Positions 137 through 61,956 of a stretch of 64,000 bases of DNA are shown here, piece after piece (positions within the stretch are counted from its first letter, which is position 1; every line of letters starts with the position of its first letter). A model generated the notes under the pieces. That model saw only the letters and a program-made list of their open reading frames with translations. It did no database searches and had not been told where the DNA came from. This stretch comes from Vairimorpha necatrix (taxonomy: Eukaryota). A program made the position numbers and the translations under genes. Location: the NCBI GenBank assembly GCA_036630325.1, contig CP142726.1:434001-498000 (forward strand). Direction: 5' to 3'.

Positions 137-140
<4 letters not shown>

Positions 141-172
<32 letters not shown>
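141..172. repeat. (AT)n microsatellite
   Basis: Uninterrupted AT dinucleotide run of about 16 units. Confidence 0.95.
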
Positions 173-174
<2 letters not shown>

Positions 175-8303: not shown

Positions 8304-8728
8304 TCAACCTTGTTTTAATAAATTCTTCCTTCTTTTCTTTGTTTTACAATAAAGGATAATTAATTCATAAAATTTAGCATAAGCATTTCTTGCAAAAATC
8401 TCATCCACATCTTGTAGTTCTGGTGGTTGGGAACAATTATTTCGTCCAACATTAAATTTCTGCATTTCTAATTTTATTCTCATCCGACAATGCCTTCGTT
8501 AATACTACCTTATACGCATAATGTAGGATATATTTAAAGGCTTGATTTGTTAATATTATACAATTTGATTTTTGATTTGATAGTTAAATTATCATGATGT
8601 CTTCCAATGAATTTATAGTCTTAAATTTTTTATTGGTACTTATGTTATTTTATTGGTTATTGGCATGATTACATAAATAAATATTTCTATTGGTACTTCT
8701 TTGGTTTTCTATAATTTTCGTTAATCAT
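8304..8728 (-). pseudogene. Possible frameshifted gene divergent from the TBC gene
   Basis: CCCC motif just upstream of ATG 8728. Protein-like segments in shifting frames (KYILHYAYKVVLTKALSDENK; SQPPELQDVDEIFARNAYAKFYELIILYC). No family recognised. Confidence 0.2.
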
Positions 8729-8731
8729 AGT

Positions 8732-9712
8732 ATGGGGAATATAAGAACTCGTAGTGTGAATATTGATTCAAAAATAGAAAAGCAAATTAACCCTAAGGAT
8801 TGTATGGCCATAAATCTTTTTCAAATAAATAATTATATTTATTGTGGATTTTCGAGTTCAATATACCGCCCTAAATATTGGAAAATTTTACTTGGATATT
8901 ACTCAACTAATAAGTTTAAAAGTAGTATATTTTACATGAAGCAACGTTATTCATATTCGATATACATTAAAGATCTATCGAGTATCAAAAATCAATATTT
9001 TAAAATAATTGAAAATGATGTTTCACGTATGTGCATTGAACCTATAATAATTAATAAAAAAGAAAAATGTGGATTTCTTGATACATTACATTTAAAATCT
9101 GGGCTGACTCGTAGAGATATTTTAATTAGAATATTAAAATGTTTCGTAGTTCACAATAAATCAGTAGGTTATATACAAGGAATGATAATGGTGTTAATTC
9201 CTATATACCATGTTTTTATATATAGTGAGGATATAGAAGATTATAGGAATTCTGAAGAAGATGCGTTTTTCTGTTTTAATTTTTTAGCTTCACATTTGTT
9301 CGAAAAATTTATAAGTGAAATCGACAATGAGCAAAATCTTTTATTTTTAATGAGTCGAGTATGGAAAATTTTAAAAAATGTAGATTATGAATTGTATAGA
9401 TGTTGTCTGAATAAAAAAATAATAGAATGTCACATATATCTGAAATGGATCTTATTTATATTCTCTACAGAATTTAAAATGGAAGACACTCAATGGTTAT
9501 GGGATAGAATTCTAAGTGATTCTAATAGATTCGAAATAGTTTATTATTGCGTAGCTGCCATTTTTAAAATATTTAAAGAGACTATTATAAAGGAATCATA
9601 TGAAATCATTCTAGAACAATTGCAAAATATATCATTATTAGATGTAAAAAAAATATTTTACATTGCTAATGAACTTAGAAGCGAAATCATACAATTTAAT
9701 GTTGACATATGA
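8732..9712 (+). CDS. TBC-domain Rab GTPase-activating protein
   Basis: RPKYWKILLGY, IENDVSR (IxxDxxR arginine finger), VGYIQGM (glutamine finger), EEDAFFCF, LWDRILSD. First ATG is 8732; ATG 8804 preceded by CCC is an alternative start. Confidence 0.9.
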   Translation: MGNIRTRSVNIDSKIEKQINPKDCMAINLFQINNYIYCGFSSSIYRPKYWKILLGYYSTNKFKSSIFYMKQRYSYSIYIKDLSSIKNQYFKIIENDVSRMCIEPIIINKKEKCGFLDTLHLKSGLTRRDILIRILKCFVVHNKSVGYIQGMIMVLIPIYHVFIYSEDIEDYRNSEEDAFFCFNFLASHLFEKFISEIDNEQNLLFLMSRVWKILKNVDYELYRCCLNKKIIECHIYLKWILFIFSTEFKMEDTQWLWDRILSDSNRFEIVYYCVAAIFKIFKETIIKESYEIILEQLQNISLLDVKKIFYIANELRSEIIQFNVDI

Positions 9713-12593
9713 AAAACGGAAAACCAAAGTATATTGTATATTGTATAGTATTTTTAGAAAGAATAAGATTATAATATAACGCGAATAATATAAAACTAAA
9801 AAAATTCCTAAATTTGTTAAATTCTTAGAAAAAAATTATGGCTAGATATGAGTACAAAGTAACATAGCTCTTTATAATTTTTTTAGTCTAAATCAACTAA
9901 CTCGTTTTCCATCAACTAACTATATTAATCCTCCTGAAGAATTTTGAGAATCTCATTAAACATATTCCAAGAGATTAGTTTCATTAATAAAAATGGATTT
10001 TGACGCTAGTTACTATACTCTACTGTATCTCTTAAAGATACATTCCTCGTGTTAATTATTTAGATCCAAGAGTACAATCGTTGTATAAATGAAATATATT
10101 TTTGAGACTTCTCAGATATATCTTTAATTTAGATAATTATATTTTATGTGTTTAAAAAATTGGTCTATGACTTTAAAGCGGATTCCTGTTTCTAGGCATG
10201 TTTTTACAATTATTATTTATGCTCGCCCCCAGTAAAAAATTTAATGTATATTTGATGAAATGTTTTGTATAGTAATTAAAGTTATTGTTATTGTTTTTTT
10301 GATATGCATTTTACTGTATTATATTTTTAAAGTTCTACTCATACACATAAATTTTTAGTTTTTCTATAATTAAAAATTGTCAGATTTATACATTTTTTTC
10401 ATCGCTTATATAACTGTACATAAAAATGACTGTTGTCAGTGTAAACTTTGTCTTTTTAAATTATTATTACCGAACTTTTATATATTTTTTATTAATCGAT
10501 AATATATGGTTTAAGTTCAAGGACGTATAACATTGATTAAAATATTAACTATCCTATTAGCTACAAGTTTAAATCAATTGCAAATAAAATAAAAAATTAA
10601 TTAAATGATAGAAAATTGTAGGTTAAGGTTTAAGTCATTGTATATTTATATTCTTAACGTCTCGCGCATAATTTAGAACTGAGTGTTGTAATTATCTTTA
10701 CTACTTCCTACGGCCACAACTTGTCTCTCAAATAAATGTATACTTTTATGTGGACTAACTATGGGCTGGATTTTACTCTTTTTGCGTCTTACTATCCCTT
10801 CTTGGATCGGTCTTTATAATATTTTTTCCACTTTTATATTACATAAAGGCTATGGGCATCCGATTTTTCTTTACGCGTGTATTCCCATACAATGGAATTG
10901 AATTTTATCCGCCTATATATTTTTTAAGTACGACACGGTTTTTTTTGAACTCCTCTCTTTTATACTTTCTTTGGATTTTTGGACACTAGTGGTTCGTCTA
11001 TCTTGCCACGACAACTTTAATTGTGAATAAGGGAATGTAGGACTACACCTAACTTGCACATCACTTATGCGAGATCTTATTAAAGTCAATACTTTTTCTT
11101 GCCGCTTTTCATAGCTCCTTACGTCTTCAGCTCTACGGATCTTTCGACTAATGCAAGTATCACCTTCTATTCTGCTAGCCAACCAACTAACCATTGAAAC
11201 TTATTCGGCCTTTCTTACGTTTATGCCTTACAAAACATACAACATCTTCTTTTGGTATTGTTTGCGTTTAATAATTTTTTGTACTCCACCACGTTAAAGA
11301 TGTTTGTAAGTTACGGTTAAATTTATTAAATATATATTCTTTACAAGCATGATTAAATTGGTTAATAATCCATTTTAGTGATGCCCTTCCGCGAATATTA
11401 TCATATACAAGCTATGTTATTTTAAGTCTTTATCTCTCAATTGATCTTTATGTTTCGTAAAGTAAAAATATATTCCTTTCGCCAGTTGATTGACTCTTAA
11501 ACAAGATTAATCATCCTTGAAGATCGGAAGCAATAAATATATCAATTTTTTTGTAAATATTTAAGACACATTCATTTGAGCTCCCATAAACTTGTTAATG
11601 AATTTGCAAAAATGTTGTCAGCCATTTTTTATATTTGAAAGATAAAACTTTTTAGAAATTAAGTAGATTTCATAACTAGATGAATTTTAAAAAATGGGTT
11701 TGTTAGAATAATAATAATAAGAGGATTCTGTCTCTGATTTATGAGCAAAACATTTGATTTAATTATAAATTAGATCTAAGCAGACAGGATTAATTTGTAG
11801 ACAACAAAGATAACAACTCTAATTATATATGCATCGCTGTATTTGCAAACTAACTCATGATAAGTAATATAAGACTTCAAAACGGAACATTTGCTCTTTT
11901 AATTTGGTTATAGTTAAAAGGGTAAGATTTGCCCCCATGTTATAATATTTAATGGAATCAATGAAATACCACGAGATATTTTTTAGCTGTCCTTATATGC
12001 CGATATCTCGTGCAAATGCACAAAACTCAGTTATAGAAGACTCTTAAAAGTGAGTTACCCTTTAGAATGCAAAATATATAGTCAGTAAGTAACGACAAAT
12101 AACGACGAAAATTGGAAATAGCATAGCAAATAGTTTATATAAAAACGAAGATGGTTACATGAAAACAAATATAATAATAAATTTTTTAATTGCTTCTTTT
12201 ATCCGTATATCATTTCGTGATGACTTTTATTAATGAATGTAAAACATCATCACATTAATCATTTAGTTTATTATATTTTTCCAAACAAAATGTCATTCAT
12301 TTGTTTGTTTGTTTACAAACAATTAAATATTTAAAATATTTAAAAATAGCCCCTCACCAAAAAATAGAGGATGATGAGCAATAAAAGAAATAAAACTCAA
12401 TATAGTAAAAACCATATTTACAACCCTCAAACTAATAATCTCATTGAGACGTACCTTCGCTTGGGGTACGTCACATTCATAAAATAAAAATTTATTTGAA
12501 GTGTTGATGCTTTTTCGATATTTTTATTCAAATTGAAAATTGTTTCTGTTTCACTTATATTGTTTTGTTATGATAATTTATCAAAATATATTA

Positions 12594-13910
12594 CAGGGTT
12601 TTGCATTTTTATAGTCCAACTTTTGAAAAAAAATAACAAAAAACCCAGAATTTGATACAATGAACAATCAATAGAATTATGTGTAAATAATATGCAACCT
12701 CATTTAATTAGATAAACTCGTTTTTCTGCCTTGCCATTTCTAGCCATCTTACCATATTAGTGTAGAATCCATTACACGAAAGGCTAAAATCGTTGTTAAT
12801 CACTTGCTCCAAATCTGTTTCTACTGTATTATTTAAGTTTCGTATAGCACAAAACCTCGATTTTATCATAGAAAAAAATTCTTCAATAGGATAAAGTTGT
12901 GGGGAATATGAAGGAAAAAAACATAAGATATGCATAATTCTCTTAGCTTATCCAAAACTTCTCTTGAATGATGAAATTTAGCATTATCCATTATTAAAAT
13001 TTTTTGAAGATTTGTTTGGAAAAAATCTACAAGATGCCTTTCAATAAATTCGACGAATAGAGCAGAATTATATGCGTTTTTTTTCATTTCGTATGCTATA
13101 ATATTCGATTTTGAAATCACGCAAAGATAACTTAAATTTTTGCCTCGATTTGCGGGGACTGTTTTAAATGCTTTTTTATTTTTATAAGAAAACCCATAAT
13201 GCCTTGTGGTATGGGCATTAAATCCAGTTTCATCCAAAAAAACAAATTTTCTAATGAATACCCCGATATTTCCATGGCACATTCAGCTCTTTTATCAATT
13301 TTGTCCTGCGAATTACGCTCTGCAGGAATTAGAGATAGTCTTTTTCTTGTAATATTGAGATATTTTAACTTTCGAGAAATAGTAGACAAAGACATTGAAA
13401 CATTTCCTAAAGTATTTAGTTCCTCTTTGATTTCACTAAGAGTCTTGTCATTACTACGTGCAATTAAGTTTTTTAGCACAAGGTCGGATGGCTTTAATAC
13501 ACTAGGAGATGATACTTTGATACGATTTATTGTACTTGTAGAACAAATGGATTCTCCCTCTAACATTTTCCTATGTATCCTCCAAACTGCTTTATAACTT
13601 CATTCTAATGTAGTAGCCATATCTTTTAATGTTAAGTTTTCGTTTTTTATATGTTTTCAATAAGGAAAAGACATCTGGAGTGACTGTAGATCTTGGTTTT
13701 CTAGGCATTAGGGGGGTTTTTTCAAAAAAAAACCTTCGGAAATAAAAAAAAATGGACTATAAAAATGCAAAAGTTGGACTATAAAAATGCAAAAGTTGGA
13801 CTATAAAAAATGCAAAAGTTGGACTATAAAAATGCAAAAGTTGGACTATAAAAATGCAAAAGTTGGACTATTAAAATGCAAAAGTTGGACTAAAAAAATG
13901 CAAAACCCTA
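12594..13910 (-). mobile_element. Tc1/IS630-like DD(34)E DNA transposon, transposase frameshifted
   Basis: TIR CAGGGTTTTGCATTTTTATAGTCCAACTTTT at 12594 with an inverted copy ending at 13910 (terminal base mutated). TA on both flanks. FLDETG, IMDNAKFH and SPQLYPIEE are split across ORFs 13132-13566, 12866-13282 and 12708-12935. ATG 13708 follows CCCCCC. Confidence 0.9.
13753..13905. repeat. Seven tandem ~22-bp units (TGGACTATAAAAATGCAAAAGT) at one transposon end
   Basis: Units start at about 13753, 13775, 13797, 13820, 13842, 13864 and 13886. The unit is the inner part of the TIR. Confidence 0.95.
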
Positions 13911-13993
13911 TAAAAAATATCATACTATGCGGGTTGAGAAACATTATATAAAAGCAAAATATGCTATAGGAGATACAATTGCGTATACATTTG

Positions 13994-16900
13994 TGTTGAC
14001 GTTAGCCGAAATATGAGGTTTTAGAGTATTCTTTTTATTATTGCCCATCCTCATAAATTCGAGGATGTATTTATATTTAATTCTGAAACGTTGTTTCAGA
14101 ATTATCATGTTTCAGATGTCAAGAAGACAATCTGATTGGTCCGGACTATCCGCCGTCCACACTCTCCCCTTCATCAAATAAGATATCGTCTTTTCAGTTT
14201 CGGTTACAGCAACTAAATCTTTTCGATTAATATCAAATGTTTTCCCTCCATTACAACTTCTTATTTGATAAGCACCTTTGCCTTTCTTAGTGATAATTTC
14301 GAATTCTTCATCTTCGTATGGTGATTCGAATTTTCTCTTCAATAGTGCGTGTTTCTTTAAAAGAACTGTATCTCCTATGTCTAAGTCATTGGGGTCTGCT
14401 TTATATAAGTTTCGTTCGTTAGACTTAGCCTTTTTCTTATCTTCTACTTCCATTATTATTTCTTTAATAATATTTATTTTCTCTCTTTTCTGTCTTACAT
14501 ATTCAATTGGATCAACAAAATATAAATCAAAGTCTGATGGTATCTCAATTAAATTGCTTGGAACTAAAGGCTCTCTGCCGTATAGTAACATAAAGGGTGA
14601 CGCATTAAAGCGTTCCACTATACCAATCCTATATTGCATTAACACATAAGGGAATACTCTATCCCAGTTCTGTTCATGATCTACCATGGCTTTTGATATT
14701 TTTTCTATCATGGTCTTGTTTGTTCTCTCTGCAAGACCATTAGCTTGTGGGTGGTATGGAGATGAATGTTTAAATCTACTTCCCCATAACTATGCTATTG
14801 AGTTTACTAGTTTATTTGTGAACTCTAATCCCTGATCACTCCTGATCGTTTTGACCGTCCCATGTCTTGAGAATACGTCTTCCACTAGAAATCTTGCTAT
14901 CTCTTCTGCCGATTTCTTTTTTAGAACTTTACCCTCAACCCATTTAGTAAAGTAGTCGGTTGCGAGAACAATGAATTTGTGTCCTGATTTCGACTTTGGC
15001 AGTGGACCGATGCAGTCGATCCCAATTTCCATGAATGTTCCTTCTACATTTGTTGGATATTGTTTGAACGGTCTATTCCTTTTAAATTTTAAACATGTTC
15101 CACATGTTCTCAATATATCTTTCACTCTATCTCGAGATATTCCTGATCCCGCATGATGTATCTTCAAAAAATTGTACGTGTTATTGGCACAACTATGTCC
15201 AGTTAAGGAATGAGCTTCTAAGATTAATTTCGTAGACGCCCCATCGCCATCTTCCTTGGTTATTGATTTTAATTGGACTCTTGAAAGGCAGTCTGCTACT
15301 ACATTATCTTTCCCTTTCTTATATTCAATCACAAATTCCATGTCTGCCAGGAACATCAACCATCTAGCAATCCTTCCTTGTGGATTCTTGACTTTATAAA
15401 GCCATACAAGAGATTTGTGATCTGTTCTTATGACAAATTTTTTATGTAAATAGTTTTTAAAAGTCTTCACCGCATAAATTATTGCAAGAGTTTCCTTTTC
15501 AAGTGTAGGATAGTTCCTCTCAGCAGGCATTAGATTTCTGCTACAGAATCTGATGACCACATCCTTCTGATTCTTTTTCTGTTTGAGAACACCGCCTATA
15601 CAATAATCTGATGCATCTGCTTCTATTATGAACATCTCTTCCATATTTGGGAGTTCTAAAAACGCCGAATTTATTAATTCTAGTCGTAAGTCATTTACAG
15701 TTTTCTCGACTTCAATTTTTGAAAATTCTCTTTTCCTATTGATTATTTCGTTTAATATAAATGTTTTACTAGAAAAATTCTTAAAATAGTTTCTGAAGTA
15801 GCCTATTCCGCCAACAAATGAGTGTAACTGTTTAATAGTTTCTATCTTTAGCTTATCTTTAAAAGGACCTAGTCTCTTTTCATCTGGGAATACCTTTCCA
15901 TCCATTACTGAATGACCTAATAAATCCACCCTCTTCGTGCAGAAAACGCTTTTCTCAGTACTTATTTTAAGTCCGTTTGCTAACAAGACTTGAAGGACCT
16001 CTCTTACATCTCTGTGGTGTTCTTCATGCGTTTTACTATATATGGTAATGTCGTCCATATAAACTACGACTTTGGAATTTATTAAATTTCTGAAAACTCC
16101 ATACATTAGTCTCTGGAATGTTGCCGGGGCATTAGTTAAGCCGAAAGGCATCATTCTATATTGAAACTTACCTACTGGTGACATAAAGGCTGTCAACTCT
16201 TGTGACTCTGGATCCATGGGCACTTGATGATACCCCTTTTCTAGATCTAATTGTGTGAAATATCTGGCTCCACTCAATGAATTAAGGCACTCCTCAATAG
16301 TTGGAGGCTGGCAAACTTCTTTTACCGTTCGATTATTTAATTCTCGATAATCTATACACATCCTGTGTCCTCCCGTGCGTTTTTTAACCACTACTATAGG
16401 TGCATTCCACCTACTCACGCTTTCTGTTATGATTCCATTTTTAGCCAACTCTAGGCATTCGTTAATTATGAACTCCTTCTTTTTACCGTTCATAGTATAA
16501 CTTCTCATATTAGCTATTGTCACGTTGGGGCGTAAATCAATTTTATGGGCTATTCCCAACGTATTGCTGAGACCTTCTTCACGTCCTTTCAGCCTTTCAA
16601 AGTAGTCTTTGACTAATTCCAACGTTGTGTTACATGTGCTGTGAACACTTGGCTGTCGTGATGTCTCTTTAGATATATGTCTTAACTCCAGACAATCCAT
16701 ATTTTTTTTTATATTTCCGGTTTTTAATATATTTTTCCCAAGAGTAATTCTTTTGTTATGGAAATCAATCGCTCCTTTGTTTATTTCCAAGAAATCTCTT
16801 CCTAATATTACATCTTCGCTTAATGGACACATCACCTGGAGGGGGATTTTGTACCTCTTTCCTTCAATCTCCAGGACTCCATTAATGCTACCATAACTAG

Positions 16901-18016
16901 AAACTATACCAGTGGCAGTTGTTATGCGTTCTCTTCTCATGTTTTCTAACTTACATTCTTGTATGAGACTTTTATCTATAAACGAATGCGATGCTCCTGT
17001 ATCTAGTAAGGCATTAACAGTTTTATTATAAATTTTGACTTTTAAATAAACTAAATCAGTTTTATTTTCATTGACTTCGTTGAGTTTTTTAGTGTCTTTA
17101 GAAATAATTTGAGCCCTTCTAGAACTTGAATAAGCCGCTTTTTCTTTCTTCAGATTTTGGTTTTTGCTCGGACATCTACTCGCATAATGTTGCCCTCCGC
17201 AGTTAAAACATGAAATTTCTGCTTTAGTATCTTTTCTCTGTTTTGTTATTAAAGATGAGTTTTTAGACTTTATTTCTGGTGTAATTTTATTATATTTACC
17301 TAATCTTTTAATAAAATCTTCGTTATCATTTAAGATTTTGATGATGCTCTTCCAGTCCATCGACTCTTTTACTTTGTCGTGAAGAACAGTTGGGAAAAAC
17401 TCGATCAGTTCCATTTTGACTGTATTAAACTCTAATTTAGCTTTCCTATTCTGGGTTATAACCTCCATTATGAAATCTTCCAGGCCACTTTCGTTAGGAC
17501 CAGATATTAATATTCTGTATAACTCTTTGATTTCATTTCTTGTCGTTTGTTTATTTACACCAAATTTAGTTATAAGAGCTTGTTTAAAACTGATGAAGTC
17601 AGTATATTCGATTTCTTCCATCGCTATCATCCATTTTTTTGCTCTTCCCACGACATAGGGTTTCATATAGGATAGAAGTTTTTCGCCTTTCCATTCCCCT
17701 TCTAAATACGAGAATTGTTCCAGCCATAGCTCAACTTCCATGCCTCCTTTACCACTGAATGGTCTTATGCCATCCTTCCTGAAGCCCACTGCTTCTAGTA
17801 AAGTACTTAATCTGTCCTTCTCAACAGATTGGTTTGCGTTGTCGCCAGTGTTGACGTTAGCCGAAATATGAGGTTTTAGAGTATTCTTTTTATTATTGCC
17901 CATCCTCATAAATTCGAGGATGTATTTATATTTAATTCTGAAACGTTGTTTCAGAATTATCATGTTTCAGATGTCAAGAAGACAATCTGATTGGTCCGGA
18001 CTATCCGCCGTCCACA
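13994..18016 (-). mobile_element. Near-intact Ty3/Gypsy LTR retrotransposon with 168-bp LTRs
   Basis: LTRs at 13994-14161 and 17849-18016 look identical (TG..CA). CATTTG flanks both ends. Minus strand shows PBS TGGCGAC and PPT GAAGGGGAGAG. Confidence 0.97.
14112..17963 (-). pseudogene. gag-pol (knuckle-PR-RT-RH-IN) with one in-frame TAG in integrase
   Basis: CFNCGGQHYASRC, LLDTGAS, YMDD, EADAS, H..GH..C..C, GIDCIG, SDQG. TAG at 14790-14792 is followed in frame by LWGSRFKHSSPYHPQANGLAERTNKT, joining ORF 14112-14711. Confidence 0.92.
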
Positions 18017-19857
18017 CATTTGTAAAAAAGTCTTTAATGATTCGTATTTTTATTTTTTAATCCAATACAAACAACTAATGTTATTGCCTCCTGTTTATTC
18101 TATCTTAATTACTAACAATTTTTTTCCAAGGACAAAAAGCATAGATCATGCAAAAATATCCAATTTCCGCTCCGATCAATCTTCTCTATGTATTATTCTT
18201 ATAATATTGACGTTTTTTTGACGACAATAAGATTTCCTAGCAGGAAATATGTTTCGGAATATTTAATAGGACAAGTCTCACGTTGTTATTACAATTGAAA
18301 CATTTTAACAAAGTTTTTATATGTCAAAATACATTTAAATGTTTGTAGGCTTAAATTCACTTTTCGACTATGAATTCTTCGATTTGGTTAGTATTACAAG
18401 GAAGGTGTATATGAGAATTTTTTATATGATACAAGTATGATGTACATTATGTAGTACATTAAAATCACAAATATTAAATTAAATAAATCTATTTTTCAGT
18501 TTTTTATCGTTTTTGTGTTGTTCGTAAATATTACTGGCACCTTGAAGTAATGAATGTTGCTCGTGTGTAAGAGAAAAACGCCAATATACTTCGTTGTATA
18601 TTTTTTAATCACGATAGTAATGTAGCATAAGATTTCCAAATACAGACAAATTAATTACAATATTGCAACAAATTGATGCGGACTACATTTCTTCTTTATA
18701 GTATGAAACATATCTTTCTTAAAAAGCAATAATTGATTCTTGTACATTTTTATCGATTTCTCTTAGAGTCTTTCATAATCATCACTAACAATGTGATATT
18801 ATAGAACGCTTTTCGTTTTCAAGTTTTTTATATGCAACAAGTTCTGAATTTTAAGACGATTATTTAGAGAATTTTTTATTTGTCTGGTTTTTATTTTCAA
18901 ATGCATAAGTATAATCCAAGCAAATATATTTTCTTCTTCTCTTTGTATCTCTCATGTCGCGAGAGTAAGGTCTGCTTCAACAATATATAGGCCCATCTAG
19001 GTGGCCATACTAAGCTCATGATCAAAAAAGATGTCATATTTTTTGATATATTAGGATTATGGTATGTTTTACAAATCTACTGAAGATGTATCTCTGATTT
19101 AGCATCACCAAGAAAATTCGATCTAAATCTCAGAGAATCGCATCTTTTTAGTTCTAAAAAGCATACACTTTTTATTAAGAAATGGAAAAAATTATGGTAA
19201 TTATGTTTTAGCAAATAACTTTAGTCAAAGAGGGATTTATACTGCTTACATTATAGATTGCATTTCATTTGTTTTTTTGGTATGGGCTGCTCATTCCGTA
19301 TGTGTATTTATATTCGTGATTGTCATAGGAGCTCTTGGGCTCTTACGAGTTTGACATTTCTTAATATTAAAAACTTTTATATTTTACCCTCGAGCAACAT
19401 ATACGGAAGGAGTCGAAAACTAAGAAATAATTTAATAATGACAGCAATAATCGTGAATTAACATGACATTTTTAACGTCGTGTATACTTTGTTGTTTAAA
19501 TCCTATGGTATAACTATAAACTGACATATTGAAAAAACATATCGCCATATCATTGATTTAAAACTTCTAAAAAATCCATTAAAAGTATCCAACATTTGTA
19601 ACCTAGGTGTTTAATGACAACCTTATCTTGCAGTTTTACCTCGAAAATAATTTTTTTGAAATGTTACAAATAAGTTAACAGAAATTCCATTTTTCCAACT
19701 GAGTACGGATTACATTGCTTATTAATGCTCCACTTCTCAAATACTTATCCTGTTTTTTTCCTTTTTATTTTCTAAACCAATGCTTTTTTCTAAATAAAAA
19801 ACGTTTACTATCCTCAAAGAATTTATGGTAAAAAATGTGTAATCTATTTTTATAATA

Positions 19858-22800
19858 TGTTATATATCCTTATTATTTTTACCCCTTATTATGGAAAATA
19901 AACACATGGGGGCGATACCAGAAAATGGGTCTACAAAGGAGGACCGTGGCCAAGAGGCTAGAATATTATTAAAAGAGGTTAAAAGGATTGTTTATGAGTT
20001 GTTTTTAGAGAAAATTGATGAGTGTGGATTTAAATTAGAAATTTTTAGGAGAGGTTCTATTTTATTGAGAAATTTTATTGTTGAGAGGATCTCGCAAGAG
20101 GGTAGTTGGAAGGAAATTGAGGAAAAATTAGAGTTGCTAGCTATTCAGGAGGAAAAGGAACAAGTGAAAAAAAAAGAATTTGAAGAGTTGTCCCTAGCGT
20201 TATGGGCTAAATTTGAGGAGAAGAATAAGTTGTCTCGTGAGGAAAATAAAAAGAATATGCGTTGCTACAATTGTGGGAAGTTAGGCCATAGTGTTAGATT
20301 TTGTAGGGGAATGAGGCGAGATTCTGAAGACAGAAGAAATAAAAGTAGTTTTAATTATGTTGGTAAATGTAAAGTGCAATTAGACTTAGAGGGTAAATGT
20401 GATGACGATTCCAATTCGGAAAAATGTGATTATTATAATGTTGATGGTGGGAAACGTAAGAAGAAAAATTTAGGGGATATACAAGATTATAGCAAAAGGG
20501 ACAATAATAAGAGAGTTCTGTTGAGAAGGGATGTAAGAGGCATCGCGTATTTAGAGGAGATTATTTCACGGGTAGGAGGAAGAGAGGATGAAGATATTAG
20601 TTTTTGTAAGGTTGAAAAATGTATTATCAAGACTCAAGAAGGCAAGAAAGTTGTTAAAAAAGGGCAGGCTATAGCTCAGGCTTTGTTGAAGAAGACGGAA
20701 GATTATATTAATAGTTTGGAAAGAAGAAAGATAATTAGAAGGTCGACATTTGACTGGAGAAATCCCATTAGAGCGATTGAGAAACCGAATGGTGATATAA
20801 GATTAGTAAGTAATTTAATTGCTCTTAATGACATTGTAGAGAAGGATCCTTATGAGTTAACTAGGATAAGAGATGTTATTAGAAGTACACAGGGATCTGA
20901 ATTTTTTACCGTGATAGATCTAAAGGAGGGGTTTTATAGTATTGAGATTGAAGAGAAGGATAGGTTTAAGACGGCTTTTGAGTTTAATAAAAAGGTATAC
21001 GAGTGGAATTCGATGGTCATGGGGTTTAAAAACTCACCGCAGATATTACAAAGAATAATGAATGGGATTTTTGAAAAATTTATTGGTAAGGGAATCGAAA
21101 TTTATATGGACGATATTGTGATTCATAGTAAGACAAGAGGGGGTCACGACAAATTGTTGAAAGAGGCTGTGGATATATTAGAGGAGAATAGTATGAAAAT
21201 TAATTTGGCTAAGGTTCAATTATGTAAACGAGAGGTGATGTTGTTAGGAGTAACAGTTAATGGCAAGGAGATACTGCCATCTGAAATAAAGCAAAATGAA
21301 GCGTTAGAATTTCCCAAACCGGAGTGTGTATCAGATGTTAGGAAGTTTCTTGGGCTGGCTGGATGGTTTAGAAATCATATTGATAATTATGCAAAACGTA
21401 CATTGGCGTTGACGGATTCTCTTAAAGGACGAGGGAGTAATTGGAAATGGACAGAAGAAATGGAAAAAGAATATATTAGTTTAAGGGAAGTGATTAGGGA
21501 TTTAAAAGGTTTAGCAATTGTTAATTATAATAAGGAATTTTTGTTACGCACGGATGCGAGTAATGTTGGAATGGGTGCTGTTTTAATGCAGGAAGATGAT
21601 CAAGGTAATTGGGTACCAGTACAGTGGGCATCAAAAAAGTTTACGCCTACGGAAACGAGATATGGAATCAGTGAGAAGGAGATGTATGAAGTCTTTTGGG
21701 GAATTAAAAAGTTTGAATATGAACTACGCGGAAGAAGATTTAGGGTAGAAACTGATCATAAGGCATTGATCGAGATTAGAAATAAACCAGCATTTAACAA
21801 TAATAGAATTAACAGGTGGATTGAAAAGATTCAAGAGTTCGACTTTAGCATTGAATATAGAGAGCCTAGTACCATGGTTGTAGCAGATGCACTGAGTAGG
21901 GTACATGAAAATGAGAAAACGCTAATGAATAAGGAGAGAAGTATTAAACAGGCACAGGGTAAGTGGGACAAGCATGTTAAAGTTGTTGATGGGAAGGAAA
22001 TTTGGGTATTTGACTCTGGTAGAGAAGCGGAGATTCCAAAGAAAGAATTGCGTGAAGGTTTAATTGTCAATGCTCATGAAAATTTGGGACATAGAAGTTT
22101 AGGATCAGTGTACTATGCAATGAAGTTTGAATTTTATTGGCCGGGTATGAAGAAGGATATCGAGGATGTTTTAAAGAAGTGTGAAGTTTGCCAAATATAT
22201 AATAGGAAAAAGAGTGGTGGTTGTGATTTTGTTAGTTCAAGATTTTATTTGGAAAAGGTTGCTTTGGATTTGATTGAGTTTAGAGATTTAGGGAAATATG
22301 TGTTGGTCGTGATTGATTATTATACTAGGATCGTTTGGGGAAAAGTAATAGAGGACAAACGCGGAAGCTCGGTTGTAGGATTTTTAAAACAGTTGTGTGG
22401 ATCAGGAATGAAACCGGTAGAAATAATTACTGACAACGGTAAAGAATTTAGTAATGAATATATGAGGAATTGGTGTTCAGAGGAAAATGTATTACATAGG
22501 AAAGTAAGCGTAGAAAGTCATAGAAGTAATGGAAGAGTGGAAAGGGTAATAGGAACCATAAGAGAAGGAATATTGAAAGATGATGCTGTGGATTTTGAAG
22601 CCAAGGTTAATAGATGTATATGGCGTTATAATAACAGCTATCATGAAGGGTTGAGATGTACACCATTTGAGGCCTCAAGAGACGAAACGGGCCATGTTAT
22701 GATCGAGAATGGACCTGAAGGATTTTATAGTAGGAGGTTTGTGGCTCGCAAAAGAGAGAAATTCTATAAAGGTCAGAGAGTTATGGTAGCGAAGAAAGAG

Positions 22801-23041
22801 AACTTATCGGGTTGTAGTAAGTATGAGAAAGGAAGGTTTTTAGGATATGGTGTTATCAAGGAAGTTTGCGGAGCTGACTCGTACTTAGTTAGTTTGGAAA
22901 ATGGTAGGATCGTGAAAAAGCGGCATTATGATTTAAAAGGTCTGCTTGGGATTAATGAGTTCTAGTATGAGACTACCGTCTTGGAGGGGGGATGTTATAT
23001 ATCCTTATTATTTTTACCCCTTATTATGGAAAATAAACACA
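19858..23041 (+). mobile_element. Intact-looking Ty3/Gypsy element with identical 49-bp LTRs
   Basis: TGTTATATATCCTTATTATTTTTACCCCTTATTATGGAAAATAAACACA at 19858-19906 and 22993-23041. TSD TAATA at 19853-19857 and 23042-23046. PBS TGGGGGCG at 19907; G-rich PPT at 22983-22992. Confidence 0.97.
19891..22965 (+). CDS. gag-pol polyprotein (knuckle, RT, RNase H, integrase; no recognisable protease)
   Basis: Uninterrupted 1024-aa ORF: CYNCGKLGHSVRFC, IDLKEGF, YMDD, RTDAS, DALSR, HENLGH..CEVC, LDLIE/TDNG/RVERV. Confidence 0.95.
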   Translation: MENKHMGAIPENGSTKEDRGQEARILLKEVKRIVYELFLEKIDECGFKLEIFRRGSILLRNFIVERISQEGSWKEIEEKLELLAIQEEKEQVKKKEFEELSLALWAKFEEKNKLSREENKKNMRCYNCGKLGHSVRFCRGMRRDSEDRRNKSSFNYVGKCKVQLDLEGKCDDDSNSEKCDYYNVDGGKRKKKNLGDIQDYSKRDNNKRVLLRRDVRGIAYLEEIISRVGGREDEDISFCKVEKCIIKTQEGKKVVKKGQAIAQALLKKTEDYINSLERRKIIRRSTFDWRNPIRAIEKPNGDIRLVSNLIALNDIVEKDPYELTRIRDVIRSTQGSEFFTVIDLKEGFYSIEIEEKDRFKTAFEFNKKVYEWNSMVMGFKNSPQILQRIMNGIFEKFIGKGIEIYMDDIVIHSKTRGGHDKLLKEAVDILEENSMKINLAKVQLCKREVMLLGVTVNGKEILPSEIKQNEALEFPKPECVSDVRKFLGLAGWFRNHIDNYAKRTLALTDSLKGRGSNWKWTEEMEKEYISLREVIRDLKGLAIVNYNKEFLLRTDASNVGMGAVLMQEDDQGNWVPVQWASKKFTPTETRYGISEKEMYEVFWGIKKFEYELRGRRFRVETDHKALIEIRNKPAFNNNRINRWIEKIQEFDFSIEYREPSTMVVADALSRVHENEKTLMNKERSIKQAQGKWDKHVKVVDGKEIWVFDSGREAEIPKKELREGLIVNAHENLGHRSLGSVYYAMKFEFYWPGMKKDIEDVLKKCEVCQIYNRKKSGGCDFVSSRFYLEKVALDLIEFRDLGKYVLVVIDYYTRIVWGKVIEDKRGSSVVGFLKQLCGSGMKPVEIITDNGKEFSNEYMRNWCSEENVLHRKVSVESHRSNGRVERVIGTIREGILKDDAVDFEAKVNRCIWRYNNSYHEGLRCTPFEASRDETGHVMIENGPEGFYSRRFVARKREKFYKGQRVMVAKKENLSGCSKYEKGRFLGYGVIKEVCGADSYLVSLENGRIVKKRHYDLKGLLGINEF

Positions 23042-26000
23042 TAATATAAAGATTATAAAAGACAATTTATATATTATGTTTTGACTAGCATGGAAAGCTG
23101 TCGTAAAGCAGTCAATTTAAAATCTTATTTACTACATTACGGATATCATAAAAAATAGGAGAATTAAAAAAAGTACCAGACAATTAAAAAAAAAATTTAA
23201 ATCATTCAAACGGGAAGCAGGGGTTGTTTAAACCTCTGTTTATTACATAAAATTAGAGATTAATGCTGAAATAAAAGAACAAATAGTATATATACTTTTC
23301 AATCCGAAATATCTAACTGATTTTTTTGCATTTACCATCTATTATAAATCTAGAATTTGAACAAATAATTTAAAAAGAAAAATATCGAAGAGATCAAAGA
23401 AATAAATAATTTGTTTTGATTGTTTAGGTATGAAGACCTCGTTTTTCGTTGTTATTTTTAAATTAAAATTCAATTACTGGCCTTCGAAAAATATAAACAA
23501 TTTTCTTGATAATAGCGCTTTTTATGAACAATTTCTAATCTTTCTTTTAATTAAGTAGTAAAAATGCCAAATAAATTATTGGAATTTGTGCAATGAAAAA
23601 AAGTCATCCAAATACAGCCACAAACAAATGCTTAAGCTCATTAAAGTTCAACTTTGGTAAATCAAACCTCAAAGCACAAGTATTTATATTCTGAAATTAT
23701 AACTTTTCGTGTAAAATCGATCGAAATTAAATTTCAGTTTTTATTACAACGTAGGATGAAAAAAATTCTTAATACTATACTTATTTCAAAAACTAAGGTA
23801 ATCCCGGGGAATTTTCTATGTTCGCGCTAGAAAAATGCATTCGATACTTGATTTTAAACGAAATTAACATATTTATTTGACAGTTTAAAGATTATAATTA
23901 TTATTTTAGAGATTTATCAACGTTGATGTTGCATCTACGATAATGAATATACACAATGGTTTTTTGACAATTTAAAAAAAGATACCCTAATCTTGATTGG
24001 CGTTCATTGAATATCATTGAGAAGATTACATGCAAAAATAACCTAAAAATTTATATGTAATGAAACCATAAAAAAAACCTTTTTAAGTAGAGCAAGGAAA
24101 AATCGCCATATGTTTATGATGATATCATAAAAGACTATTTGAATATGATAAGAATTTAATTATGCATATTTTAATCTGTACTATGACGAATTAAAGAAAT
24201 CGAAAAATAAAAAAGAGTCTATAATAAGTAGAATATAATATATTTTTATCTTTTTTCCGTCTATCTGTATGAATTACAATCTCATAAATTATAAAATGTT
24301 TATTTCGATAAATTAAAAGCAATGTTTTATTAGACAATCAAAGTTTTATTATGTGTTTTTGATTAATCTTATAAATAATACAATTTATATTAGAATTATC
24401 ATAATATGCTTCACTTGTTTTGAATTTCAAAAGGTATTTCGTATAATTGAAAATTTAAAATAATTATTGAGTTTGATATAAATCAAAATGCGATCATTGT
24501 TTCAAGTAGAACACGAATCATGATATTAAATTTAGGAAGATGGCTGTGAAAATTTCTAAAATATTTTTAAAAAAATTGCTTTGATTTGACATAAAACTAT
24601 AAAAGATTTGACATTTGGAAAGATAGAAATCAAAGGATATTATTTCTTTTTTTCTCGAAATTCGGCAGTCAAAAAACAACTTATAAATAAAAAATCGGTA
24701 TGAGTTTTGCAACACATCTTAAGTGTTATTTCAAATATGTAAGATACTAGTGCATTGTGTCAGTAAATTTAATTTTTTTTCCTATTCAAAATAGATGTAA
24801 TTGCCATTGACTTCACTGTGTGTTTTTTTCCTTGATTCAAATTAAAATTGCAGTATGGAAGTATTACTACGAGATATATGTAGAAGATTGTCTTTATAAA
24901 TTTCAAGGCTTTATAGTTTATCTTTAATTGCAATTTGTATTATTTTTTCAATAAACAACATGGACGTCTCCCAAAGGAATTTGGCTTGATTTATGTGTAG
25001 AGTTGCTTCCTTATACTATTTTTGATCTTTGTATATACTTGTCAGGTCGATTTCGGGATGATTATTAACATAAGATTTATGTATATTTAGTATGATTATA
25101 ACCCTATGCTAATTATTTAGATTGTTATATCAATAAAACGATAATAATCCTTCCAACACTCTGAATATGTATAGTTGTAAAACATGAAATTTGAAGTTTG
25201 GCACATGAAAGACTATATTTAATTATAAGCCCTCTAAAAAATTTATGTACTCGTTAAAATATTTTAAGAAAGGGCCTGAATACTTATAATTTTATATGTA
25301 AAATCTTTACTGGGATTTATTTACGTTGTATTCAAAGCAGAAATAAAGAACAGTCGAAATTACTTTAAACTGTATAAATGATAATTGCCAATTAATTAAC
25401 AAATCGTTTTTTAGTGTAATATAAATTTCAAAAGCTATAATTTAATATTGTGCTCTTGTAATGCTTTATAGGGCTAATATTTTTAAAATGTGGCAAGGTT
25501 TTTTATAATATATTGAAAATACATTACTTTGCAATTAATATTACAACATATAATTTATACTTTATTCTTATTTTTTTTAAAAAAGTTATTTTTTATACTC
25601 AAGCGTCTTAAAATACACAATTATTATAAAGGAACACATAATTTTATCAATTGTAACTAAAGTAAATATTAAATTAGTTGCGGCTATGTAACTTCGCACT
25701 CCCAGAAAATTACATGAAGCTATTGTTGTAGCTTAAATTAAGAAGTGAACTAGCTACTACACACGCTAATTATACAAAAGCCTCGAACAGAAATTGTCTT
25801 ACAAATGTAAAAGTATTCTGAGGAAAAACGAAAACAAAGAAACGACAAATTGATTAGTCTTTCTTTTTTGTATAAAATATATACTTTTAAATATTTTTCA
25901 TATAAAAACATCGAATTTCTAATCAGTATCATATATTCGTTTGTTTTGGCGTTTAAGATCTTAGTAAAGGATAAAATTGTTATATTTACACTTTGTATGC

Positions 26001-27918: not shown

Positions 27919-28723
27919 TTTTTTTTTTTTTATTTTTTTTTCTTGCAAGTAAGAGGTAGGGAGAAACCTTACATAGGGACCAGAGGGATTTGAGTGTGAT
28001 CCTCATCTAACTGGTACTGTGAGATTCTTACTCACTAAAACTCCCTCCATACAACTTGCCGGTGCAGCAAGCTCCGCCGTATCCATTGGACTTTGGCTCC
28101 AGGAGAACACTTTTCATTTATACCTCAAATCGCGTCTAGAGTGACCTCACAGCGGATATACTTAACGGGCATGGTTATCTATAACCCGAGGAGAGACATC
28201 ATCGTACTGACTCAAAGGTCCCTACAATCATCTGTATTACACACACGGCTCCTTACACGACCACATCCCCAGCCCGGCGTTTTTTATTGGGCTGCGTTGA
28301 CCACAAGTCTCCCACTAGTTTCGGCCACCGTGTTAAGAATCTTGTAGGATAGGGTCCACGAGACCTTCTATTGCCCTACTTCGTCTAGTCTCTTAGTTAG
28401 CTCTAGAATCCCACTCTAAAGTGCACCAGCCATGGGCTCCAACTAGGCCGTACCCATTAGATACTTTTATGTATCATTAAGTCACCAAAGGGAGATACTG
28501 CTTTTTGGCCTTGAGGTGCGTTTCTACACTAGATGCTAATCCCCTTGTGGCTGGACACACACAAGTTTCATTGAATCAACTTAATGATTATCGTGGACAT
28601 TTTCATAATCTGAGTTGTTCCAACTGCATCATAGAAAGTAGAAACAATTTTGGTGCCCCTGGGAATCGAACCCAGCCATTGCTCAATGGAAGCATAGCAT
28701 TCTACCACTGTGCTAAGGGCACC
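27919..28723 (-). mobile_element. tRNA-headed SINE, ~805 bp
   Basis: tRNA-like head at 28652-28723, GC-richer non-coding body and A-rich tail (T-run 27919-27941 on +). 14-bp TSD TAGGATAATTTTTA at 27905-27918 and 28724-28737. Confidence 0.88.
28652..28723 (-). ncRNA. tRNA-like head of the SINE (Pol III A/B boxes)
   Basis: Acceptor GGTGCCC/GGGCACC, D-arm AGCA..TGCT with A-box TAGCACAGTGG, T-arm CTGGG-TTCGATT-CCCAG. Anticodon arm irregular. Confidence 0.75.
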
Positions 28724-30981: not shown

Positions 30982-33900
30982 TGTTAAGGGACAGATCTTT
31001 AGTGGTCCTAAGATTGCCCTGTTGACCAGAATAACATTCTGTAGGTATTCTTCTCCCTGTCCTTAATTATGTTTTGGAGGGAAAATACTTTATTTCCCCT
31101 CCAACGAACATAAAAGAAAATCATACCCATAAGGGTATGAAGAGGTTAAATAAAACAATAATAAAACTATCTCTTCACAGACTGCATGGCCACTAGTTTT
31201 CAACAATTGTGGTAACGGCGAAGAGGATACGAATTATGAAATCTGTTCCTACGTGGAAAAACTAAGTCTACAAAACAGATGGACAGAATTTACCGGCGAA
31301 GATTTAAGCAAAGCCGAAGACTTTCTTCCCAGTTTAGAAAAGAAGATGTCCATGAGCAAGTCAAGACGCTGGAGATTTCAAAGTCCAAACTAAAGAAAAA
31401 AGCGTTGAGATGGTATAAAGCCTTCGAGGCGGAGGAGATGACAAAATTTGATACATTCAAATCCCAATTTCAAAAGAAATACAAAAAAGAAAAACTACTT
31501 GAAGATGTAACTGATAAGTTTATGCACTCGTACGTACAAGGTCCAAAGAAAAGTGATATCATGAGTTACGCTTACGACCTCAAGAGTTGTGCAAAGAAAA
31601 GCTCTGAATACTTTGATCGATCAAAGATTGCGATAGGAAAAAACTCCCCAGATACGTTGAAAGAATCTATATATGACACCAAAGACTGGATAGAGTTATT
31701 AGATCTGGTAGAAGAGAAAGAAACTCTTTTGATAATTATCTAAAAAAGAAAACCAAATGGCCCCTAATTCCACGTAACGGAGCATCCTTGCAGAAAAAGA
31801 AAGTGATTAAAACTTTTACAAAGAAGGCAGAAGAAGGAAAAACTGCATTACTTTTGAAGGTAGGTAGAGTGGAGAAATCGAAAACTAAAGACATGCATCC
31901 AAGAATTTAACTTTTTTTGGGAAAAAATTTGCCGCACTAATCGACCAGGTGCCCAAATTAACCTGATTAGTAAAAACACTGTCCAACACTTGGGTCTAGA
32001 AACAACAAATGTTTGTTAAAACATTGAGGGAGTAGTAGGAAGTGTTAAATCAGAAAAAATGGTGGAATTCATGATTAAAAAACCTAAAAACAAGAAGAGC
32101 AACAGAGTGGAGGCTTATGTAGTTGAGAAATTGCCAGATAACCTCGTTATAGGTATTGGAGATGCCGTTTCACTAAACTTGTTAAAGATGCTTGATAAAA
32201 TGGAAAGCGCTGTTATAACGAAATCAATATGTACAATAACTTCAGTTAAGAATGAAACACTTATAACTGATGTCGGAGATGAAACATTACTACAAGTTGA
32301 AAGGGAAAAATTCAATAAGCTGATTTTATAGTACTCAGAAATTTTTTACAGCAATGGCCTTCAATCAAGTTTAGACATTGAACACGCGATAGAATTAATA
32401 AATGACGTCTCGGAAATAAAAAAATATTCAATACAGAAGATCGCTGAACAAAATAAGATAATAGAAGATAAAGTTCAAGAATTTTTGAAGAAAGAATTTA
32501 TTGAGAACAGTGATTCGGATTATACTTCCCGGTAGTGTTGGTCAAGAAAATGACGGTGATTTAAGATTTTCATTGACTATAAAAGACTCAACAAAATCAC
32601 GAAAAAAATGATTTGCATAATCCCTCTCATAGAGGGAACTATCAGAGAAATACAAGGATCTTCAATATTTACGGTATCAGACTTAGAATCAGGATATCAC
32701 TAAATAAGAATTTGTTCCAAGGATAGATACCCAACGGCCTTTAGGAGTAGATCGGGGACTTTTCAGTGGGACAGGATGCCATTCGCCTTATTAAATACGC
32801 CCTTTATATTTCAAAGATAATGAATTCAATACTATCCCCTCACTTTTACAAATTCGTACAAGTATATCTAGATGATATAATGATATATTCAAAATCAATT
32901 AAAGAACATCTGGAACATTCAAAGGCAGTAATCAAAATACTAAATAAGTTGAAACTGAAAGAAAAAAAAAATGTAAAATCGCTAAAAACTTTGTCAATTT
33001 CTAGGATATATGATAGATAAAGATGGATTTAGCATACCTTTAGATCTGCAGACAAAATGCTTACGTTTAAAAACACTAACGACTCTCAAAGAAACTAGAG
33101 CCTTCATTGGCTTAATCAAATATTTTCGGAAATTTGTAAAAAACTATACAAGTATCATGGCTCCGATTTATGAGTGCTTAAAAAAGCAGATTTGAGTTCT
33201 GCGAAAATGCGAAAGAAAGTGTATCTTAGAAAAAAAAATTATCACGAGCTCGCCTGCTCTTAATTACCAATTTTAACCTAAGATTTATATTATATACTGA
33301 CGTATCTAATTTGTATATAGGAGCAACATTGATGCAGGTATGGAATCGAAATTTTCGTTTTTTTTTATATCAAGAAAACTAAATACGGCAGAGATTAATT
33401 ATACGGTCACTGAGAAGGAGTGTCTTGCCATAATATGGAGCATAACATAATTCAGACTATATCTTACCAATACTTTTACGATCCGAACAGACCACCAAGC
33501 ACTTAAATGGCTACTCGATTCTAAGGAGAGCACAGGAAGGGTAATGAGGTCGATTCTAACTTTAGAAAATACTCCTGAAATTGAATATATTATAGAAAAA
33601 ATAACGTTATTTCTGATGGATTAACCAGATTTGTCCATACAGTAAAGAAGGACCAGGTAGATGAACAATCGTTTTAGATAAAAGAACTTATTCTAAAGTG
33701 TCACGAAGAATGTGGGCATATAGTATATTTCCAACATACCCGCCAATTCTCAAGAAAACGAAATGGAAAGGTATTTATGCAGATATAAGAAAAGAAATAG
33801 AAAATTGTTAAGTATGTCTGAAATTTAATCCTAAAAAACTACCTAAAGAGCATCACAGGATTCGTCTCAAGGAACCATTTTCCATAGTTAGTATCGATAT

Positions 33901-34915
33901 CGTAGGTCCATTACAAAAATCAGAAATAGGAAAGGTGTATTTAATAGTAGCTACAGATTACTAATCAGATGGAGTGAGGCAAAAGCCGCAGCTAAATTTA
34001 TTTTCGAAGAGATTGTTTCTAAAAATGGGCCTCCAAACAAACTACTATCAGACAGAAGACTTGAGTTCTTAATCATTACAGCCAAAGAAATATGTAGAAT
34101 CTTCAATACACAAAAATCTTTTATCTCGTCTTATCATCCACAATGTAATGGTACTGTAGAGAGAACTAATAAATCTCTTGTAGCGAAACTGGGCAAAATC
34201 ACAAACAGAAAATAGAAGGAATGGGTCGAATACCTAGAGCAGGCTCTTTATGCTTGTAGAACCTCCCCAAAAAAAATTAGAGCATTCTACATTTGAATTA
34301 TTATATGGACGTAAACGGCAGACATGGGAACAGACAAGTGAAGAGTTAATACCAATAGAACCCAATTATTAATATTCGAAAGGCTAAAATAGACCCGAAA
34401 AATTATGCTTCAAGCAGAAAGAGAAGCACGGAAAGGAGAAATGGAAAGTGTGAAAGAAAAATCGTTAAAGTAGGGGATTTAATATTGAGACGTAAACCTC
34501 CCATTAATGTTGAAATAAAATAGACAGTAAATTTGAAGGTCCATATACGATAACAAAAATCGGCAAGAAAGGCGCTTATGAAATAAGATCCAAATGTCGT
34601 AAATTCTCAGTGAATCAGAAGGATTTAAAAAAGATGGATGTCGAAATGGGAACATGGGAGCCTCTAAAGAAGGAGGAAGTGTTATGGGACAGGCCACCAG
34701 AGGTCCTACGTCTACCCCGGAGGCCAGGAAATATAAGTATATAGATATTCTTTTATATTTTAATCATGTTTTGGCGGGGAAATGTACTACATTTTCCCGC
34801 CCATGAACATAAAAAAAATCATCTCTAGACTAGAAGGGTATGAAGAAAATTAAAAAACCATTTAATAGTAAAGATTATTAGAGGACTGTTGAACATACAA
34901 CAGTCTACACCGACA
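30982..34915 (+). mobile_element. Decayed Ty3/Gypsy element with diverged ~225-235-bp LTRs
   Basis: TGTTA.GGGACAG starts at 30982 and 34680, the latter after PPT GAAGGAGGAAG. PBS-like TGGTAAC at ~31210. Remnants of gag, YLDD RT, RNase H and integrase (SIDIVGP, SYHPQCNG). No matching TSD; right end approximate. Confidence 0.8.
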
Positions 34916-35464
34916 ATATCAACTATGCCAGAAGAATTGTTTTTTAACAATATTTATTTTACTTTTGTTAAAATTATAAAAAACATGACTTATTCTATTT
35001 GACCTGTTAACTTTATATATAAAAAATTATCTTTTTTGTTCAAGTTAATTATGAAGGGTAAAAAAGAGCGATCTGAAAACAAAAAACACCAGGAAGAAAA
35101 AACAGATACAAATGAACACGATACAAAGCAGGAGGGGACTGAGGATGGCATACAAACAATACATGATAAGGTGAGCGTCTTGTGTCTCTAAAGTCTATGC
35201 ATACATCTGTGGAATCGAATTCCAACGAGTGGCCCGGAATAGTGCTGGAGGCAATTCTCCAGCGTTCCGGACGGATGCCAGGAGGAGGATGGGATCTCAC
35301 ACATGAGGTATACGATAGTAAATTTAGCTCGACTCCACTTAAATTGCAAGAACTATAGCCGAAAGCTAGTGCAAGAGTGACATAGAAGGCGGCCAACCAT
35401 CAAGCAATAGGAAATTTCTTGCACATCCAAAAACAAGCTAAAGAATGAAAACAATAAAAGACAT

Positions 35465-51131: not shown

Positions 51132-51172
51132 TTTTATTTTTATTTTTTTTTTTTAATATGTAGTCAGAGAAT

Positions 51173-61941: not shown

Positions 61942-61956
61942 ATATGTAGTCAGAGA

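Follow-up and report, generated by a model that had tools for sequence, protein, structure and literature searches.

In Ty3 of Saccharomyces cerevisiae the long terminal repeats (LTRs) are 340 bp long, a frameshift joins two open reading frames (ORFs), the capsid has two lobes, and the protease is essential. We analysed a stretch of 64,000 nucleotides of Vairimorpha necatrix (assembly GCA_036630325.1, contig CP142726.1, positions 434,001 to 498,000), hereafter the window, numbered from its first letter. At 19858-23041, on the plus strand, it contains an LTR retrotransposon of 3184 bp whose two LTRs are identical across 49 bp and have TG..CA termini. This element resembles Ty3 in its reverse transcriptase (RT)-RNase H-integrase order, tRNA primer, polypurine tract (PPT), 5-bp target-site duplication (TSD), and CCHC zinc knuckle, and is unlike it in LTR length, in its single ORF, in the lack of a protease, and probably in its capsid. 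The start of GAG inside the LTR and the primer-binding site (PBS) within the coding sequence are also found in Ty1, which differs in its copia domain order, its LTR of about 334 bp, and the presence of a protease. Very short terminal repeats are known from TRIM and SMART elements, but these have no coding capacity, whereas the window element encodes a protein of 1024 aa with RT, RNase H, and integrase. Ty1 shares with it, in addition, a short 5' untranslated region (UTR), which is predicted for the window element, and a short PBS, of 53 nt and 10 nt respectively in Ty1 (PMC3592414).

Elements with LTRs of similar size have been tabulated for another microsporidian, Anncaliia algerae. Its retro L has an LTR of 50 bp, an ORF at 32-3049, and a length of 3127 bp (PMC4202319, Supplementary Table S1), and its retro S has a 45-bp LTR (PMC4202319). 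Parisot et al. (2014; PMC4202319) place retro L, according to the text of their Fig. S1, in 'Microsporidia Group 1'. A single polyprotein ORF, instead of separate gag and pol, is a feature of this group and of the window element. The portions of the main text that we covered note the single polyprotein, say nothing of LTR length, and contain no occurrence of the word 'protease'. Compared by eye, retro L and the window element have the same LTR start, the CCC-ATG arrangement, an in-frame ATG at the junction of LTR and PBS, the motif before the PPT, and a knuckle followed by the RT (after about 85 codons in retro L). They differ in host and primer site, and retro L is a consensus from a fragmented assembly, without TSDs. 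By these likenesses the two appear to share a lineage; the tree presented below does not include retro L.

The original prediction for this locus, made from the sequence alone, reported identical 49-bp LTRs, a TSD, an open ORF, and a total of 3184 bp, all of which we recover (Table 1). To these we add the PBS, the second in-frame ATG, the PPT, and the absence of a protease. The prediction also presented the micro-LTR as unusual. The short repeat is real, but LTRs of 45-50 bp were tabulated for Anncaliia in 2014 without comment, and a start codon inside the LTR is the microsporidian norm (PMC4202319). The short LTR is less surprising because it follows microsporidian promoter anatomy and was already tabulated. 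What should surprise a specialist is that a thriving lineage seems to have lost the protease and about half of the capsid. In the literature that we covered, mostly non-subscription papers, we found nothing on protease loss in microsporidian LTR elements and, beyond the 2014 supplement, nothing on the LTR size of this lineage; the covered portions of PMC12449221 and PMC13174016 are silent on the latter.

A polyprotein without a recognisable protease

The order RT-RNase H-integrase, with intact catalytic residues, assigns the element to the Ty3/gypsy group (Metaviridae). We class it as a gypsy-derived variant and not as a canonical member because the aspartic protease between Gag and RT is absent. 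A number of observations concern this absence. First, Pfam identifies zf-CCHC, RT, RNase H, and integrase in the 1024-aa protein, and no protease, whereas a neighbouring element scores several protease families. Second, a homologue search returned 43 close proteins at E <= 3e-102 (the next one is at 3e-78), with labels such as Nosema granulosis (80% identity), Vairimorpha necatrix (54-58%), and Enteropsectra breve (48%), and the precomputed domains of these 43 homologues include no protease. Third, no aspartic-protease family is among the Pfam matches listed for 45 clade proteins (25 of 77 families). Matches to Peptidase_A17 were rejected as evidence of a protease, since they overlap RNase H. 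Fourth, a protease profile built from 36 outgroup elements scored at most 2.0 bits against 47 clade proteins, versus 61.0 and 27.5 bits for two held-out microsporidian proteases used as positive controls. Fifth, an alignment of 23 clade proteins (41-60% identity) shows no change in the CCHC knuckle or in any catalytic residue of the three enzymes (RT, RNase H, and integrase), and the segment from knuckle to RT is short and cannot be aligned. At aa 20-121 the AlphaFold model (pLDDT 79) has one long and three short helices; the knuckle, a low-confidence linker at aa 146-215, and the RT follow. The RT fold matches the RTs of CaMV and of Ty3 (4ol8; E 4e-30 and rmsd 3.7 for the latter).

One could argue that a protease is there and too divergent to be recognised, or that it comes from another frame. 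The linker of the window copy, at about 100 aa, could just hold one, and D[TS]G occurs ahead of the RT in 2 of the 43 clade proteins. Yet several members have a linker of about 35-40 aa (knuckle-to-YxDD distance of 218-220 aa), the region is unalignable and is disordered in the model, and no other ATG-started frame of at least 80 aa overlaps the element, which makes a hidden protease very improbable. The distance from knuckle to YxDD alone is undecisive because the ranges touch: it is 218-296 aa in 38 of 41 clade members and 356 in one, with the values of 86 and 115 in the remaining two taken as pattern errors, and it is 293 and 370 in the controls. Taken together, we consider a true loss of the protease very likely. 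The coding strand of the element (19891-22965) also has a strong excess of G over C (27% and 9%), far above that of the neighbouring gypsy elements.

A Gag with room for about half a capsid

The Gag has about 125 residues, with space for one capsid lobe only (aa 20-85), against the two lobes of a canonical capsid. The predicted model suggests that this mini-Gag is probably a single capsid lobe, perhaps the first one, followed by a coiled coil and the zinc knuckle. Its profile matched, weakly, the first Gag lobe of a protease-bearing family with 71-bp LTRs from the same genome (score 22.0, shuffles at most 13.7), the only one of six lobes to beat the shuffles; the other five gave no score above them. 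A language model gave the mini-Gag a likeness to retrotransposon Gag of 0.90-0.94, which we use as a lead only. The comparison with the Gag of the neighbouring element by hhalign gave 19%, partly driven by the knuckle, and an N-terminal profile search among short proteins gave one match. Fold matches from the structural searches are weak: Foldseek returned no match to the mini-Gag model at E <= 0.001, and a match to the Arc C-lobe (Z 6.0, rmsd 2.5, 64 aligned residues) was tied with unrelated helical bundles. In a VIA structure search the best Z was 6.6, and capsid N-lobes were not among the matches listed.

Relatives with and without a protease

We built a FastTree phylogeny of 113 RT-RNase H regions, restricted to full regions, which dropped 4 of the 47 clade proteins. 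The 43 protease-less sequences form one branch (support 0.995), and its sister in the sampled tree is the protease-bearing element with 71-bp LTRs. A caution applies to this grouping: since similarity to the query decided which proteins entered the clade, its monophyly is partly by construction, and sampling of other microsporidian groups was very thin. Among viral_contigs there were no relatives with intact ends, and metagenome_contigs held five loci, two of which belong to one truncated clade member without an LTR pair.

The V. necatrix genome (15.0 Mb, 12 contigs) contains further families of both types. Relatives at 62-66% amino acid identity in the enzyme region have LTRs of 48-49 bp in which CCC stands at position 25-26 and an in-frame ATG at 33-34; they also have the junction ATG. 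A family with 38-bp LTRs (L103-L109) has a TSD in all seven fetched copies and an open ORF of 1006 codons in three of them. Its LTR lacks the T tract and starts with a short inverted repeat that takes in the CCC, and part of its promoter may come from the AT-rich target site. The pattern of pre-PPT motif and PPT had 148 matches in the genome and none in the control; the motif is kept across families with differing primer tRNAs and, by eye, in the Anncaliia retro L. A pattern for another primer class had no matches. Families with LTRs of 71, 76, and 168 bp have TG..CA ends, a D[TS]G protease, a longer two-part Gag, and an ORF that begins in the LTR, in frame. Solo LTRs are present in the last two.

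A protease-bearing element with 71-bp LTRs, the sister branch in the tree above, is nested inside a copy of the 49-bp family, L042 (G000:C3:881500-890500). In the window, a gypsy element at 13994-18016 (minus strand) has identical 168-bp LTRs, a 6-bp TSD, a protease, an ORF start in the LTR, and one in-frame stop within the integrase; the genome has six near-identical pairs and one solo LTR. Another, at 35465-37702 (minus strand), has an internal deletion, 76-bp LTRs, a 5-bp TSD, and CCC plus an in-frame ATG in the LTR, and its fuller copies elsewhere bear a protease.

Uncut, host-nicked, or cut by a helper

Because the element has no protease and apparently only about half a capsid, its polyprotein would most likely stay uncut or be nicked by the host. 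Protease is nevertheless essential in Ty1, Ty3, and Tf1, and a helper enzyme is at hand. Among other gypsy families at least 146 protease loci exceed the Pfam cut-off in this genome (150 of 260 candidates were scored), many in open frames longer than 1200 aa. These points tell against self-sufficient maturation and raise the alternative of a semi-autonomous element, with its own signals and enzymes, that relies on another resident gypsy family for co-packaging with its Gag and for cleavage by its protease. Its sister branch bears a protease in the same short-LTR, ATG-in-LTR design, and the weak lobe match suggests that a single lobe could co-assemble with a full capsid. Yet helper-dependent elements usually lose their enzymes, whereas here all catalytic residues are kept at 41-60% identity and across Anncaliia, Enteropsectra, Nosema, and Vairimorpha labels, and the linker shows no conserved cleavage motif in the 23-protein alignment. 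We therefore regard a borrowed protease as rather unlikely, and we favour an uncut or host-nicked polyprotein over it, since the enzymes persist throughout deep microsporidian lineages. Maturation free of any helper is, in our estimate, evenly poised. If the element is self-sufficient, a lineage spread across microsporidia would replicate with an uncut Gag-RT-RNase H-integrase, one capsid lobe, and a pair of 38-50-bp LTRs. This would be the smallest working design for a tRNA-primed, integrase-using retroelement, with neither protease nor classical particle; we put it forward only as a tentative possibility. It raises a testable question, i.e., whether an LTR retrotransposon can do without a protease and a full capsid, both of which are deemed essential for such elements and for retroviruses.

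Copies, age, and insertion sites

The 49-mer of the LTR, with up to three mismatches, occurs 54 times in the genome, and its reversed control does not occur. These occurrences form 27 LTR pairs at 27 distinct sites: 24 full-length elements, two with internal deletions, and one split by a nested element. All 27 have LTRs of 49 bp, so that no copy has the longer repeats that would have contradicted the original prediction. The two LTRs are identical in 24 of the 27, and a 5-bp TSD is present in 26. The repeat is not host sequence, as the flanks differ at every site. An artefact or a host repeat would be hard to reconcile with 27 loci that have different flanks and TSDs, and with a contig of the public run X1 that shares the 3' boundary (23041) and then continues into another flank; we regard it as negligible. 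We are almost certain that this is a genuine LTR retrotransposon. The variants present in contigs from other public runs are about 3% apart, and no empty site was seen in the contigs of the four runs covered.

The claim of recent transposition stands for the family, which has amplified recently: the 14 of the 24 full-length copies that keep the full 1024-codon ORF intact diverge by 0.58% on average (range 0.16-0.82%). This is better evidence than the identity of the LTRs, on which the claim had partly leaned and which dates little because the repeat is only 49 bp long. The 14 copies differ by 69 non-synonymous and 31 synonymous variants (2485 and 587 sites), a weak signal of selection. No solo LTR of the family accompanies the 27 pairs in the genome. 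We dropped this absence as a claim, since the counts to compare it with (one solo LTR and six pairs in the young 168-bp family, two or three solo LTRs in the 76-bp family) are too few and the ages of the families too different.

Insertions are found at the palindrome A|TNNNA|T, with A at -1 in 24 of 26 sites and T at +1 in all 26, in flanks of 27% GC. A 48-bp LTR with a 6-bp TSD is equally compatible with many copies. We prefer 49 and 5 because this keeps the CA end, fits the two copies of 26 without A at -1, and makes the target motif symmetric. As the original prediction pointed out, 49 bp is well below the minimum that most LTR finders assume, 100 bp by default in LTRharvest (PMC2253517, Table 1). 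Programs with this minimum miss the ends of the lineage, which has at least 148 3' ends in the 15-Mb genome, and its ORFs are then annotated as host genes.

The LTR as a probable promoter

Microsporidian 5' UTRs are shorter than 7 nt and are preceded by an A/T tract and CCC, and promoter examples given for Nosema ceranae closely resemble positions 13-33 of the LTR (PMC2803860). The LTR has this core-promoter layout, with CCC within about 15 nt of the ATG and an A/T tract before it. The original prediction had placed a CCCC motif typical of microsporidian starts, the ATG, and AATAAA inside the LTR; their positions are correct (Table 1), and the layout around CCCC matches the published one and is kept in sister families. 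In Anncaliia, 43 of the 50 complete consensus elements have the ATG and promoter inside the LTR (our count from the supplement of PMC4202319). In the families examined, the place of CCC and the frame of the upstream ATG are held, with 9, 15, and 27 nt between the upstream and junction ATGs. The LTR is thus likely to act as an ordinary microsporidian promoter. If the rule for microsporidian 5' UTRs applies to it, U3 would measure about 30 nt, and 16-21 nt would be the upper limit for R. Natural R regions can be as short as 11 bp in MMTV and 21 bp in RSV (PMC3601003).

Some facts weigh against this reading. In Tto1 a repeat of 25 nt is insufficient for strand transfer (PMC3061985), CCCC is damaged in both LTRs of copy L015, and CCC is missing from the 168-bp LTR family. 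It could be that the LTR is not a working promoter, that copies are transcribed from the AT-rich host flank or start at the junction ATG, and that CCC and AATAAA are by-products of base composition. The flanks and the target motif are indeed AT-rich, the hexamer A(A/T)TAAA turns up in 17-30% of shuffled LTRs, the 38-bp family has no T tract before its CCC, and, of the two Met codons, the one at the junction is better conserved in the clade alignment. The constancy of the CCC place and of the upstream ATG frame over such different spacings is difficult to explain in this way, and we find this alternative improbable.

The role of AATAAA is less clear. It ends 4 nt from the end of the LTR, where cleavage usually follows about 20 nt downstream of a poly(A) signal (PMC2803860), and it reads Asn-Lys in frame. 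It is found at LTR position 39-40 in nine of ten loci, and at position 20 in the tenth locus and in the 38-bp family. The hexamer predicted at this place is present, but it is only a candidate poly(A) signal because it lies near the LTR end, encodes Asn-Lys, is common in shuffles, and is displaced in two sister families. The transcript may be cleaved past the LTR, with U5 absent from the RNA.

A model of the replication cycle

The explanation that we find somewhat more convincing than not, overall, is that of a Ty3/gypsy-derived element from an old microsporidian lineage, reduced to about 3.1 kb, whose polyprotein is uncut or nicked by the host. Its cycle could involve 1) transcription from the 5' LTR as an ordinary microsporidian promoter, beginning a few bases ahead of the ATG, with a U3 of about 30 nt and an R of about 16-21 nt; 2) cleavage of the RNA, probably where the 3' LTR ends or shortly beyond it, which would leave a U5 of about zero; 3) priming by tRNA-Pro within the first codons (6-10); 4) a jump of the strong-stop DNA of 16-21 nt to the 3' R; 5) plus-strand priming at the PPT; and 6) insertion by the element's own integrase, which would duplicate 5 bp at AT-rich palindromes of the form A|TNNNA|T. 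The element itself encodes the signals and enzymes (RT, RNase H, and integrase) for tRNA-primed reverse transcription and integration. The polyprotein would work uncut or be nicked by a host protease within the disordered linker, and the helical mini-Gag would hold a small ribonucleoprotein, with no classical particle. As to the primer, the PBS matches the AGG isoacceptor of tRNA-Pro over 13 nt, versus 8 nt for CGG and 7 nt for TGG. Pairing with the tRNA that extends past the PBS was not among the matches listed, and complementarity between the 5' and 3' parts never exceeds 7 nt. The lineage may also mark a natural lower bound for LTRs, as 38-49 bp must carry both integrase ends, the promoter, the start codon, and the strand-transfer repeat.

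Table 1. Layout of the element in the window, from one target-site copy to the other
Feature	Position	Strand	Basis
5' TSD copy, TAATA	19853..19857	+	sequence
5' LTR, 49 bp, TG..CA	19858..19906	+	sequence; genome-wide copies
T-rich tract and CCCC (at 19882-19885), predicted microsporidian-type core promoter in the putative U3	19870..19885	+	layout as in PMC2803860, Table 1
Likely start codon within the LTR	19891..19893	+	in frame with the ORF in families with 38-, 48/49-, 71-, 76-, and 168-bp LTRs
AATAAA; reads Asn-Lys in frame, and its 3' copy (23032-23037) is a candidate poly(A) signal	19897..19902	+	sequence
Second in-frame ATG (last LTR base and first two PBS bases)	19906..19908	+	sequence
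PBS of 13 nt, complement of the 3' end of host tRNA-Pro(AGG), within ORF codons 6-10	19907..19919	+	tRNA match
Single ORF, 1024 aa: mini-Gag, linker, RT, RNase H, integrase	19891..22965	+	ORF list, Pfam, model
Helical part of the mini-Gag, aa 20-121: small helical lobe and one long helix (predicted)	19948..20253	+	predicted models; weak lobe match
CCHC zinc knuckle, aa 125-138	20263..20304	+	Pfam zf-CCHC (aa 124-138), alignment
Low-confidence variable linker, aa 146-215, at the usual protease position	20326..20535	+	alignment, model
RT core (RVT_1), aa 296-456, YMDD	20776..21258	+	Pfam, fold match
RNase H, aa 546-650	21526..21840	+	Pfam
Integrase HHCC and DDE core, aa 717-870, followed by a beta-rich C-terminal domain	22039..22500	+	Pfam, alignment, model
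Lineage-specific motif GAGACTA(N)YCGTCT before the PPT, potential 4-5-bp hairpin	22969..22981	+	genome pattern count
PPT	22983..22992	+	sequence
3' LTR, same as the 5' LTR	22993..23041	+	sequence; contigs of runs X1 and X2 share the 3' boundary
3' TSD copy, TAATA	23042..23046	+	sequence

Other features of the window

A head-to-tail array of non-LTR (LINE-like) elements extends over 51000-64000 with a period of about 5.0 kb; it has two endonuclease-RT frames of 1242 codons and a truncated third copy. At 12586-13920, a 22-bp tandem repeat (13725-13920) and an inverted match (12586-12625) surround a transposase-like frame; these would be the sub-terminal repeats of a probable DNA transposon. Further gypsy fragments, all decayed, and a transposase frame that we take to be hAT-like are found among 1000-4900, 31200-35000, 38684-39808, and 40400-42400. 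Host genes are sparse, with a tRNA-Met at 28651-28723 and a frame at 8681-9712 that is presumably TBC-like.

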